A DNA stretch of 64,000 nt, taken from the NCBI GenBank assembly GCA_040758495.1, contig JBFLVL010000005.1, positions 35,682 to 99,681 on the forward strand, given 5' to 3'. Within the stretch, counting starts at the first letter, position 1, and every line of letters starts with the position of its first letter. Positions 37,501 to 39,913 of this stretch are shown here, piece after piece. The stretch is from Chloroflexota bacterium (GTDB lineage: Bacteria > Chloroflexota > Anaerolineae > Anaerolineales > JBFLVL01). The notes below the pieces were generated by a model. It saw only the letters and a list, made by a program, of their open reading frames with translations, did not search any database and was not told the DNA's origin. A program made the translations under genes and the position numbers.

Positions 37501-37540
37501 TAGCCTTCCGTACTATATCCCTATTGGTAAGAAAAAAGAA

Positions 37541-37572
37541 ACCCGCCCTCTTTTAGATACAGGGCGGGTTTT
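37541..37572. terminator. Bidirectional intrinsic terminator between convergent M29 and trxB-like genes
   Basis: ACCCGCCCT (37541-37549) pairs with AGGGCGGGT (37561-37569). The stem is flanked by an A-run on the left and TTT on the right, so it reads as a stem plus U-tract on both strands. Confidence 0.75.
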
Positions 37573-37621
37573 ACATGCCTACAACCCTCGTGCCAGGGAG
37601 AGGCAGCCCACTCTGCTTAAT

Positions 37622-38602
37622 TCATTTCCAATCCGCCCGGGCTGTTTGGCGACCGTGGAGGTACTTATCCACGGATATGGCAGCCACCACCCCGTCGGCT
37701 GCGGCAATCACCGCCTGTTTGATGTGTTCACAGACGATATCACCTACAGCAAACACGCCGGGGACGCTAGTCTTCATTTCACGATCTACAACCAGACAGC
37801 CCTCTTGCGTGGTTTCGAGTTGACCCATCAGGTAATCCGTTATCGGTCGGTTACCCTGGGTGTAGATAAACACGCCGTTCACTTCTAGCGTTTCTTCCTC
37901 CCCACCTCGCGGTTGGATGCGTACACCCTTTACGGTTTCATCACCTACGATTTCCCTCACGCGTGAGCCCAGGTATATAACTACCTTCGGATGGTTGGTC
38001 ACTTCTTCAACCAGGTGCGGACGAGCCTTTAACTCCGGTGTGGGGACGACCAGGAAGACCTGTTCGGCAAACTTGGTCAGAAAAATGGTTTCCTCCAGCG
38101 CTTCGTCGTTGTTCCCTGCTACAGCAACCTTCTGGTCACGGAAGAAAGCACCATCACAAGTAGCACAATAACTCACTCCCCTTCCCAAATAAACCTCTTC
38201 GCCGGGCAGCGTGCTGGTGCGCCCCATTGATCCGGTAGCTAAGATGACGGCTCGAGCGTAAAACGGTTTGCTCCCCGCCATCACCATCTTGGGATCAGAG
38301 GAAAAATCCACACCAACAACCTTGTCGGTCAAATACTCAGCCCCGAATGACTCCGCTTGCTGGCGGATAATCTCTACCAATTCTGCACCGCTGACCGGAC
38401 CGGGTACACCGGGATAATTGTTAATCTTGCCCGTTATGCCCAGCGCACCAGCAGTCAGACCCTTATCAATGACCAGGGTTCGCAGGTCTGCGCGGGCGGT
38501 ATAAATCGCCGCAGAGGAACCCGCTGGCCCCCCACCGATAATAATTACATCATAAACATCCGCTGGTTCTGCCCCCAAACCAGTTAATCGTAAACCTTCC
38601 AT
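37622..38602 (-). CDS. trxB: Thioredoxin-disulfide reductase homologue lacking canonical NADPH-binding motifs
   Basis: 326 aa with the FAD motif IIIGGGPAGSSAAIY and a redox-active CATC (VSYCATCDGAFF). The positions of GGGNSA/HRRxxxR read VAVAGNNDEALEE and FLVVPTPELKA. GAGGTG lies upstream of the ATG, and the gene starts 28 nt after the PDO stop. Confidence 0.85.
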   Translation of the reverse strand: MEGLRLTGLGAEPADVYDVIIIGGGPAGSSAAIYTARADLRTLVIDKGLTAGALGITGKINNYPGVPGPVSGAELVEIIRQQAESFGAEYLTDKVVGVDFSSDPKMVMAGSKPFYARAVILATGSMGRTSTLPGEEVYLGRGVSYCATCDGAFFRDQKVAVAGNNDEALEETIFLTKFAEQVFLVVPTPELKARPHLVEEVTNHPKVVIYLGSRVREIVGDETVKGVRIQPRGGEEETLEVNGVFIYTQGNRPITDYLMGQLETTQEGCLVVDREMKTSVPGVFAVGDIVCEHIKQAVIAAADGVVAAISVDKYLHGRQTARADWK

Positions 38603-38630
38603 ATTCTTTACACCTCATCACCTTTCAGAT

Positions 38631-39299
38631 TCATCCAGCCCCTGCTTTCAATGCTTCCATCACTTTCGCTAGCACCACCTGCTCGGGAACCGCACCCTCA
38701 ATAAAAAAGCCTTCGTTGATGACCGTTCGAGGGACACCCATTACGTGGTACTTATTGGACAGATGCGGAAATTCAATCGCTTCGACCATGTCGGCGCGAA
38801 TGTAGGCGCTTTCCATGGCCATTTGATGCACCAGACGAACTGCCGGCGGGCAGTACGGTCAGGTAGGGGTAATGAAAACTTGAAAATGTACCGGCTTGTC
38901 TATCTTGGCCAGTTGGTCTTTCGTCGCCGGCGAGAGACCCGAATCTCCTAACGAAACCATAAAAATATCCTCGATCAACGAAGTGAACTCGTACCCCGAG
39001 GGAATGCCAAAGAAGCGTATGCCGTAATCTACCGGCCTATCCCCATCCGCGGTAATAACCACAGCCGGGATTTTGTCAATCCCGTAACGCTTGGAAACCC
39101 CCTTCCCCGGTTCAAACATGGTCACTTCGGCTGCCAGTTTTTCCGAAAGGCTGGCCAGTTCCTCAATCAACATGCGCGTTTCATGGCAATACTGGCATTC
39201 TCTCTCCTGGGTGAACATCAACAGCTTAACCGGACGCTGTAACTTTTCAGCAAACAGCCGCTGTAATTGGATCTGATCACTTTCAGAAATCAAAGACAT
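38631..39299 (-). CDS. Two-domain protein disulfide oxidoreductase (PDO/glutaredoxin-like) with an in-frame TGA at 38859-38861. Candidate selenoprotein (UPYC); alternatively a nonsense-disrupted pseudogene.
   Basis: ORFs 38859-39344 and 38631-38831 share a frame and are separated by a single TGA. The ATG at 39299 has GGAGGA upstream. The N-unit carries CQYC; the C-unit reads FITPT-TGA-PYCPPAVRLVHQMA...DMVEAIEFP...YHVMGVPRTVIN. Read through, the protein is 222 aa, a PDO-like size. Confidence 0.6.
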
Positions 39300-39344: not shown

Positions 39345-39373
39345 ATTTTACGCGTTTTTATGACTGGCCTCAA
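39345..39373 (-). promoter_or_regulatory. Putative promoter of the PDO-trxB-like operon
   Basis: Minus strand reads TTGAGG (39368-39373), a 17-nt spacer, then TAAAAT (39345-39350). Confidence 0.4.
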
Positions 39374-39397
39374 GTGCTGGGCAAGAAGGAGCAGGAC

Positions 39398-39441
39398 TTG
39401 ACACCGCAAAGGAGAGCGAATAAAATTATCAATAACAATTC
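39398..39441 (+). promoter_or_regulatory. Putative promoter of the Fur-family gene with an overlapping AT-rich Fur/PerR-box-like sequence
   Basis: TTGACA (39398-39403), a 17-nt spacer, then TAAAAT (39421-39426). The segment AAATTATCAATAACAATTC (39423-39441) is made of NATWAT-like hexamers and overlaps or follows the -10. Confidence 0.4.
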
Positions 39442-39463
39442 TCTATAAATAAACTTTATCATT

Positions 39464-39913
39464 ATGCCAGAAACAACCGAACGTCAGACCCGCTTAAAAC
39501 AAGTGGTGGCCAAATTACGTGAACAGGGTCACCGGATGACACCGCAGCGCATGGCGGTGCTGGAAATCCTGATTGACAGTACACAACACCCCGGCGCCGA
39601 ACAGGTCTACGAGCAAGTGCGCAAGGACTTTCCCATGACCAGCCTGGCGACGATATATAAGACATTGATTGTGCTCAAAGAAGTGGGTGAAATTTCAGAA
39701 ATTGTGCTCGCCGATGGTAGCAACCGTTACGATGGGAACATCCCCCACCCTCACCCACACCTGATCTGTAACCACTGTCACCGTATCATTGACGTTGACC
39801 TCAACGACTTGAGCACCTTACCCCAGGTGGTGGCTCAACAGACAGGCTATCAAATAGTCAGTCATCGGCTGGATTTTTTTGGGATCTGCCCACGATGTCA
39901 GGAGGAGGGGTGA
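39464..39913 (+). CDS. Fur family transcriptional regulator (Fur/PerR-like)
   Basis: 149 aa with a winged-helix N-terminus (RMTPQRMAVLEIL). The metal sites are HPHPHLICNHCHRIIDV and CPRC. Confidence 0.88.
   Translation: MPETTERQTRLKQVVAKLREQGHRMTPQRMAVLEILIDSTQHPGAEQVYEQVRKDFPMTSLATIYKTLIVLKEVGEISEIVLADGSNRYDGNIPHPHPHLICNHCHRIIDVDLNDLSTLPQVVAQQTGYQIVSHRLDFFGICPRCQEEG

Follow-up and report, generated by a model that had tools for sequence, protein, structure and literature searches.

The window analysed here, a stretch of 64,000 nucleotides from a Chloroflexota bacterium (Anaerolineales; assembly GCA_040758495.1, contig JBFLVL010000005.1, positions 35,682 to 99,681), carries two neighbouring genes on its minus strand. 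The upstream gene encodes a protein disulfide oxidoreductase (PDO) with selenocysteine (Sec) in its active site, and the downstream gene encodes a flavin disulfide reductase with the fold of low-Mr thioredoxin reductases (TrxRs). An earlier note, made from the sequence alone, had described the reductase as a TrxR homologue without NADPH-binding signatures and had placed both genes in one operon. Judged from sequence, structural model and tree, the reductase belongs to the DTR / cyanobacterial-type FFTR family. The features of the locus are collected in Table 1.

Table 1. Features of the reductase and PDO genes and related elements of the window.
Feature	Position	Strand	Basis and remarks
DTR-type flavin disulfide reductase gene	37622..38602	-	ORF, 326 aa; start ATG at 38602, stop TGA 37622-37624
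FAD dinucleotide-binding loop GGGPAG, residues 23-28	38519..38536	-	ORF translation
Redox-active CATC, residues 146-149	38156..38167	-	ORF translation; context YCATCD
Degenerate former NADPH site, residues 158-193	38024..38131	-	Aligned with the TrxRs of M. smegmatis and M. tuberculosis
Basic C-terminal tail GRQTARADWK	37625..37654	-	Trp325 codon 37628-37630
Ribosome-binding site GAGGTG	38611..38616	-	Sequence read; 8 nt before reductase ATG, inside 28-nt gap
Seleno-PDO gene, two thioredoxin folds	38631..39299	-	Start ATG 39299, preceded by GGAGGA; stop TGA 38631-38633
Promoter-like site TTGAGG-17-TAAAAT	39345..39373	-	Consensus scan, pattern match only; upstream of PDO-reductase pair
Intrinsic terminator after reductase	37531..37571	-	11-bp GC-rich stem, then U-run
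Single-chain pyruvate:ferredoxin oxidoreductase gene, 1188 aa	17164..20730	-	POR_N 275 bits; 17 kb from operon

Translation of the reductase open reading frame (ORF) confirmed that the FAD motif and the redox-active CATC are kept. Residues 23-34 read GGGPAGSSAAIY, and G23, G25, P26 and G28 of the FAD loop do not vary across an alignment of 58 DTR-type sequences. The thioredoxin-docking motifs GR/KG and FF, as defined in PMC9025218, flank the CATC in the form of GRG (residues 140-142) and FF (153-154). Together with the Pfam matches (Pyr_redox_2 at residues 17-304, E 1.4e-37; Pyr_redox at 158-230), the protein displays the two-domain fold of low-Mr TrxRs with an FAD-binding GxGxxG loop. The span of the former NADPH site, residues 158-193, reads KVAVAGNNDEALEETIFLTKFAEQVFLVVPTPELKA. 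In HMMER alignments with mycobacterial TrxRs, GNNDEA stands in place of GGGxxA (GGGDSA) and VPTPELKA in place of HRRxxxRA (HRRDEFRA). That is, GGG has become GNN and HRRxxxR has become VPTxxxK, and both signatures are gone, as the earlier note had claimed. Since the segment matches the mycobacterial enzymes column for column, the motifs have been replaced and not merely shifted. The reductase thus lacks GGGxxA and HRRxxxR, and it scores 338.9 bits against TIGR01292, the equivalog model for thioredoxin reductases that depend on NADPH (NTRs), slightly below the cut-off of 343.45.

We compared the protein with enzymes of known structure by HMMER. The best match was the DTR of Gloeobacter violaceus (GvDTR; 5J60, and 6XTF in complex with the ferredoxin Fdx1) with 306 bits, an E-value of 1.6e-90 and ~47% identity over the full length, followed at a distance by the best NADPH-type enzyme (229 bits), the clostridial FFTR (6gna/6gnd, 110-115 bits) and DDOR (5n0j, 84 bits). 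The alignment with GvDTR reaches the very end, where the terminal D-W falls on the D-W of ...KPDW in GvDTR. Therefore Trp325, the aromatic residue that had been pointed out near the end of the ...ARADWK terminus, corresponds to W315 of GvDTR. In that enzyme W315 stacks against the other protomer's flavin, and both ferredoxin binding and activity depend on it (PMC8154056, PMC12796991); it sits on the flavin re-face, where the nicotinamide would stack (PMC8154056). The DTR family is ferredoxin-dependent, needs its tail to bind ferredoxin and has an FAD potential too low for NADPH (PMC8154056, PMC12796991). By this family model, the FAD midpoint potential of the window's enzyme is predicted to be well under -320 mV.

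A template-free AlphaFold2 model of the reductase (pLDDT 89) gave analogous results. With Foldseek it superimposed on 6xtf_A/5j60 with a TM-score of 0.83-0.85 and an rmsd of ~3 Å, versus only 0.52-0.57 and 8-14 Å for canonical NTRs, and it is predicted to adopt the open domain arrangement typical of DTR. Thus the window's enzyme shares with GvDTR the fold and (in the model) the open arrangement, the FAD loop, the CxxC, GRG/FF, the loss of both NADPH motifs and a basic C-terminal tail ending in D-W.

In a quick maximum likelihood tree (IQ-TREE, 88 rows), a split with SH-aLRT 95 separated 52 motif-less rows, the window protein among them, from 36 canonical rows with GGG/HRR. GvDTR itself was not among the rows; FFTRs of Synechococcus and Prochlorococcus (L060-L064) fell on the side of the reductase, together with further motif-less sequences that carry the tail. 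We also searched 1.8 billion cluster representatives and inspected the motif columns of 150. The ~35 best of these 150 (42-59% identity) likewise have neither GGGxxA nor HRRxxxR and for the most part terminate in D/Q-W/Y, while representatives below ~245 bits are ordinary GGGDSA/HRRDxxRA enzymes. Across the 58-sequence family alignment, GRG and FF are kept, the first glycine of the former NADPH loop (G163) is invariant and the next two are Asn. The tail column holds Trp in 47/58 sequences and Tyr in 8/58, with Asp before it in 47/58. Close homologues number in the thousands. Named genomes with family matches include Anaerolinea, Caldilineaceae, Thermoflexales, Nitrospirae, Bipolaricaulaceae, Paenibacillus, Fervidibacter and cyanobacteria, in agreement with the carriers listed by the family's authors (Chloroflexi, Nitrospirae, Firmicutes and others; PMC8154056).

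The earlier note had assigned the protein to the pyridine-nucleotide-independent TrxR-like enzymes and had named clostridial FFTR, Gloeobacter DTR and the F420-dependent enzyme of methanogens as examples. The class holds; of the three, DTR alone fits, by score, tail Trp, model and tree. By every sequence-level test the reductase is a DTR-type FFTR, and it belongs neither with the clostridial FFTR nor with DFTR or DDOR. The clostridial FFTR (C. acetobutylicum/pasteurianum; 6GNA-6GND) also has the TrxR fold and is independent of pyridine nucleotides, but it is distant (~115 versus 306 bits), measures 288-294 aa and carries no C-terminal Trp tail (PMC8154056); the window's enzyme is neither short nor 6GNA-like, and it does have an aromatic tail. 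The NADPH site is also gone from two other relatives of TrxR, the DFTR of Methanocaldococcus jannaschii and the cyanobacterial DDOR. However, DDOR lacks the docking motifs that are kept here (PMC9025218), and the gene for F420 synthesis that a DFTR-like system would call for was not found in the window's genome (see below). Both the reductase family and the seleno-PDO family were known before, as was the occurrence of DTR in Chloroflexi.

The reductase gene starts 28 nt after the PDO stop with a GAGGTG of its own; both had been stated before and both were read in the sequence. A consensus scan found one promoter-like site for the pair, upstream of the PDO gene. No terminator was found between the two genes, and an intrinsic terminator follows the reductase, where the region 37525-37625 of the minus strand folds at -35.8 kcal/mol (z -2.06). 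It is shared with a convergent M29 aminopeptidase gene. Because of the single upstream promoter-like site, the missing intergenic terminator and the hairpin with U-run after the reductase, a bicistronic unit would be the simplest reading of the sequence, and the short gap and the conserved synteny described below link the two genes as well. The proposed operon is thereby supported.

The partner gene was examined for the selenoprotein that had been suggested. Its in-frame TGA (38859-38861) takes the place of the first Cys in the second CxxC and yields T-U-P-Y-C, with Sec as residue 147. Translated with TGA as U, the protein carries CQYC in the first fold and UPYC in the second. Its pieces match TIGR02187.2 (PDO_seleno_TRX) with 157.6 bits (profile positions 2-139) and 74.3 bits (151-209), and its halves also match the N-terminal domain of AhpF, more weakly. 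The start at MSLISE is supported by alignment with Cys-form orthologues (60-63% identical). The genome encodes tRNA-Sec, selA and two selD genes. Examined as a possible SECIS, the 69 nt after the UGA form a hairpin directly downstream of it with a z of ~0; it is the family, the position of the codon and the Sec machinery on which we base the reading of this TGA as Sec, which upholds the seleno-PDO of the earlier note. In a poorly resolved tree of the Sec form and the DTR-linked Cys-PDO lineage, the window PDO sits on a long branch. The two selD genes (G000:C5:8028-8978 and G000:C32:5501-6430, G000 being the window's genome) have one in-frame TGA each and appear as seleno-SelD paralogues.

The pairing of the two genes is conserved. 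Wherever the flanks of a close homologue could be read, the gene immediately upstream of the DTR-type gene was a Cys-form PDO (TCPYC). These close homologues, with reductases 70-75% identical to that of the window, come from Anaerolineales (L047), Promineifilaceae (L048), Ardenticatenaceae (L049), Anaerolinea (L050) and Caldilineaceae (L051, L052), and from the loci L155 and L156. The pair was also found in Thermoflexales (L054), Anaerolineales (L056), Fervidibacter (L055) and a Clostridia metagenome-assembled genome (MAG; L058). It spans two phyla besides Chloroflexota, and the PDO there is always the Cys form. Among all loci examined, a Sec-PDO next to a DTR-type reductase was seen in the window alone. 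PDO-DTR loci provide one PDO in natural Sec and Cys forms. GvDTR, in contrast, acts on a free m-type thioredoxin, and the cyanobacterial and Nitrospirae members of the family have neither a PDO nor a small glutaredoxin next to them.

Other neighbours occur on both sides of the pair. Some of the DTR-type genes that stand without a PDO, and others besides, adjoin a small CAFC glutaredoxin, which suggests that such proteins are alternative dedicated acceptors of DTR-type reductases. A protein with the PF00462 glutaredoxin fold adjoins the DTR-type gene at L018, L019, L053, L054, L069 and L154, and CAFC was read in L054. At a locus whose homologue is 75% identical (L155:796-1392), a gene of the Redoxin/AhpC-TSA family lies directly upstream of the PDO-DTR pair and hints at a peroxiredoxin-type acceptor. 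Conversely, the PDO occurs beside reductases of other types. Seleno-PDOs with T-U-P-Y-C lie directly beside a TrxR gene at L028, L034, L037 and L044 too, but the reductases there carry GGGDAAVE and HRRDxLRA, are of the NADPH type and fall into the canonical tree clade. These loci belong to the Chloroflexota genomes G077, G025, G037 and G049 and show the in-frame stop at the same T-U-P-Y-C position. At L089:1661-3409 (Chloroflexota MAG S1bins75) a Cys-PDO stands beside a TrxR-like gene whose second domain reads GAGNSGLQ ... EFLP. This pattern, GAGNSG/EF, resembles that of NADH-type AhpF, so that the pair looks like a split AhpF-like system. Since DTR-type, canonical NADPH-type and AhpF-like reductases are all found beside it, the PDO appears to be a shared acceptor that was joined in different lineages to reductases with different donors, DTR coupling being one recurrent solution.

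Known relays of this kind are the archaeal PDO-TrxR systems (Saccharolobus solfataricus, Pyrococcus horikoshii) and bacterial AhpF, in which a TrxR-fold flavoenzyme feeds a PDO or the AhpF N-terminal domain and thereby a peroxiredoxin (PMC7278568). Their reductases are NAD(P)H-dependent, whereas that of the window is DTR-type and the attacking Cys of its PDO is Sec. Judged from the sequences, the two-gene system would be akin to a split AhpF and to the archaeal PDO/NTR relays, except that its reductase would work without pyridine nucleotides. A full-text literature search of incomplete coverage found no link between FFTR/DTR and PDO.

To narrow down the electron donor we turned to the genome of the window, a 93%-complete assembly in 54 contigs, to which the following negative results apply. 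No canonical NADPH reductase was detected, and with the canonical NTR of a relative as query only the DTR-type gene was found. A second TrxR-like gene (L002, 295 aa) was considered as an alternative reductase and rejected, as it has no CxxC. This flavoprotein (L002:1489-2376, on G000:C10) reads ICYEV where the CxxC is expected, and its ORF shares a few bases with each of its neighbours, an upstream isochorismatase-like ORF and a downstream ORF of 321 aa. Ferredoxin:thioredoxin reductase, flavodoxin and cofH (TIGR03551, F420 synthesis) were not found either, the last in a search that matched the control genomes. Present are four loci for 2-oxoacid:ferredoxin oxidoreductases (OFORs; POR_N), several small ferredoxins of the [4Fe-4S]/7Fe type and two peroxiredoxins of the AhpC/TSA family. 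The pyruvate:ferredoxin oxidoreductase (PFOR) encoded in the window is a possible source of reduced ferredoxin. Candidate donors among the small ferredoxins are encoded at C2:77640-78086 (7Fe-type), C5:11168-11389 and C28:2286-2498 of this genome. The clostridial FFTR uses a [4Fe-4S]-type ferredoxin, the only ferredoxin type found in this genome. Given that the genome yielded PFOR and [4Fe-4S] ferredoxins but no plant-type ferredoxin, flavodoxin or F420 synthesis gene, the donor here probably differs from the characterised plant-type ferredoxin. NADPH itself is unlikely as the direct donor, as had been suspected, given the homology to a biochemically characterised enzyme (PMC8154056, PMC12796991).

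One locus offers a suggestive, if weak, lead. On an Anaerolineales MAG contig (CAYYTU010000077.1, L056:814-3700), a Cys-PDO, a canonical NTR with GGGDSA/HRRDELRA, a DTR-type gene and a ferredoxin stand in a row. The ferredoxin (69 aa, 2x[4Fe-4S]) follows the DTR-type gene after 12 nt and is 57% identical to a protein of the window's genome, and its place in the row might hint at ferredoxin as donor. As a dedicated donor, this ferredoxin is no more than a weak lead: its homologue is rare in the order (3/40 genomes) and turns up in a genome that has no DTR-type gene. Its two copies in the window's genome stand in unrelated contexts, one with PIG-L/methyltransferase and one with amidohydrolase/aminotransferase genes. 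With NTR and DTR genes side by side for one PDO, presumably with different donors, L056 offers a natural donor comparison.

Taken together, we consider it likely that the reductase is a homodimeric DTR-type flavoenzyme that has lost its NAD(P)H site and passes electrons from ferredoxin via FAD and CATC to the co-transcribed PDO. By homology to GvDTR, we infer that Trp325 in the basic tail of the partner subunit would cover the FAD on its re-face. A low-potential one-electron carrier, most likely a bacterial-type ferredoxin reduced by PFOR/OFOR, would reduce the FAD in two steps, and the FAD would pass the electrons to the CATC disulfide. We further infer the PDO to be the substrate, reduced by CATC at its C-terminal U-P-Y-C (selenenylsulfide) centre. 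It would then hand the reducing power to peroxiredoxins, for example the two of the AhpC/TSA family in this genome, and to other disulfide targets. Characterised PDOs are indeed reduced by TrxR and feed peroxiredoxin (PMC7278568). As the assembly yielded no canonical NADPH reductase, this enzyme may also act on the single WCGPC thioredoxin, encoded at C16:23812-24189.

Several findings weigh against this reading. To our knowledge, the members of the DTR clade with biochemistry are cyanobacterial only. While GvDTR works with a plant-type [2Fe-2S] ferredoxin, the host of the window is a non-photosynthetic Chloroflexota in whose 93%-complete genome no free ferredoxin of this type was found; PF00111 (Fer2) matched only within large ORFs or enzymes or in a 160-aa Fer2+Fer2_2 CoxS-like subunit. 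Such a partner is, however, a trait of the characterised GvDTR system and not of the sequence family. The linkage of a ferredoxin to a DTR-type gene was seen at 1 locus of ~30, and in the sampled genomes of the order, ferredoxins of the L056 type and DTR-type genes did not co-occur. A canonical NTR (385-405 bits to TIGR01292) was found in each of four relatives that share the PDO-DTR operon, so its absence from the 93%-complete, 54-contig assembly may be an assembly gap. Among 401 sampled genomes of the phylum, seven DTR-type genes stand without a PDO in the surrounding 1.5 kb. Finally, the seleno-PDOs at L028, L034, L037 and L044 pair with NADPH reductases, and therefore the PDO needs no DTR-type partner.

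A low-potential carrier other than ferredoxin, such as F420H2, a small thiol, a hydrogenase or another flavoprotein, would account for the missing plant-type partner. F420H2 is the donor of the methanogen DFTR and a small thiol has been proposed for DDOR, and F420-, glutathione- and hydrogenase-linked relatives have been reported (PMC7278568, PMC9025218). We regard this explanation as rather unlikely. Neither cofH nor flavodoxin was found in the genome, DDOR is a far weaker match (84 bits) and lacks the GRG/FF kept here, and PFOR/OFOR as well as several [4Fe-4S] ferredoxins are available.

Still less probable, in our view, is that NAD(P)H is used through non-canonical binding, the loss of the motifs reflecting a changed coenzyme preference. 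The second, Rossmann-like domain is retained (Pyr_redox 158-230) with G163 invariant, and other classes of PDO-paired TrxR vary in this region, as the AhpF-like GAGNSG/EF (NADH) of L089 illustrates. But HRRxxxR has had all three of its basic residues replaced, and so has GxGxxA its third glycine. NADPH is not used by the closest characterised relative, whose FAD has a potential lower than that of NADPH (PMC12796991); in GvDTR the tail Trp fills the nicotinamide position on the flavin re-face (PMC8154056). The canonical NTR and the DTR-type gene side by side in L056 argue for different donors as well. That the reductase is a decaying or regulatory paralogue without activity, its neighbouring PDO being reduced by another enzyme, is very improbable, as its slight shortfall against the TIGR01292 cut-off stands against an FAD loop, CATC, GRG/FF and tail Trp conserved over 58 sequences from several phyla, thousands of close homologues, a conserved operon and the finding of no other CxxC-bearing TrxR in the genome.

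To date, work on DTR/FFTR enzymes has concerned cyanobacteria and clostridia alone, and the substrate was thioredoxin. What is new here is that the DTR family shares a conserved operon with a PDO in bacteria that are not photosynthetic, and that it may be the cell's only thioredoxin reductase; the locus does not open a new class of system. If electrons do flow from ferredoxin through the reductase to the PDO, Anaerolineae-type organisms such as this one would draw on the ferredoxin pool and not on NADPH for their thiol redox homeostasis and peroxide defence, and FFTRs with a Trp tail would not be confined to plant-type ferredoxins. More tentatively, and with somewhat less than even confidence, we propose an undescribed relay in Chloroflexota, some Bacillota and Fervidibacteria, from [4Fe-4S] ferredoxin through the DTR-type flavoenzyme to the PDO and on to peroxiredoxin and others, which in the window's host would be the sole TrxR system with its PDO upgraded to Sec. 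Such a relay would be wired to fermentative ferredoxin (PFOR) instead of NADPH or photosystem I, and the Trp tail, a feature presumed to have arisen for plant-type ferredoxin, would serve bacterial-type ferredoxins too.

Upstream of the pair, an AT-rich spacer (39374-39470) separates the PDO promoter from a divergent Fur-family gene. It contains GATAAT-like repeats (TGATAAAG..., TTGATAATTTTATT), which overlap the plus-strand promoter and could be a Fur/PerR box. Downstream of the divergent gene follow ferritin and then cydAB. At the Promineifilaceae locus L048, a FUR gene likewise lies 1.2 kb from the PDO-DTR pair.

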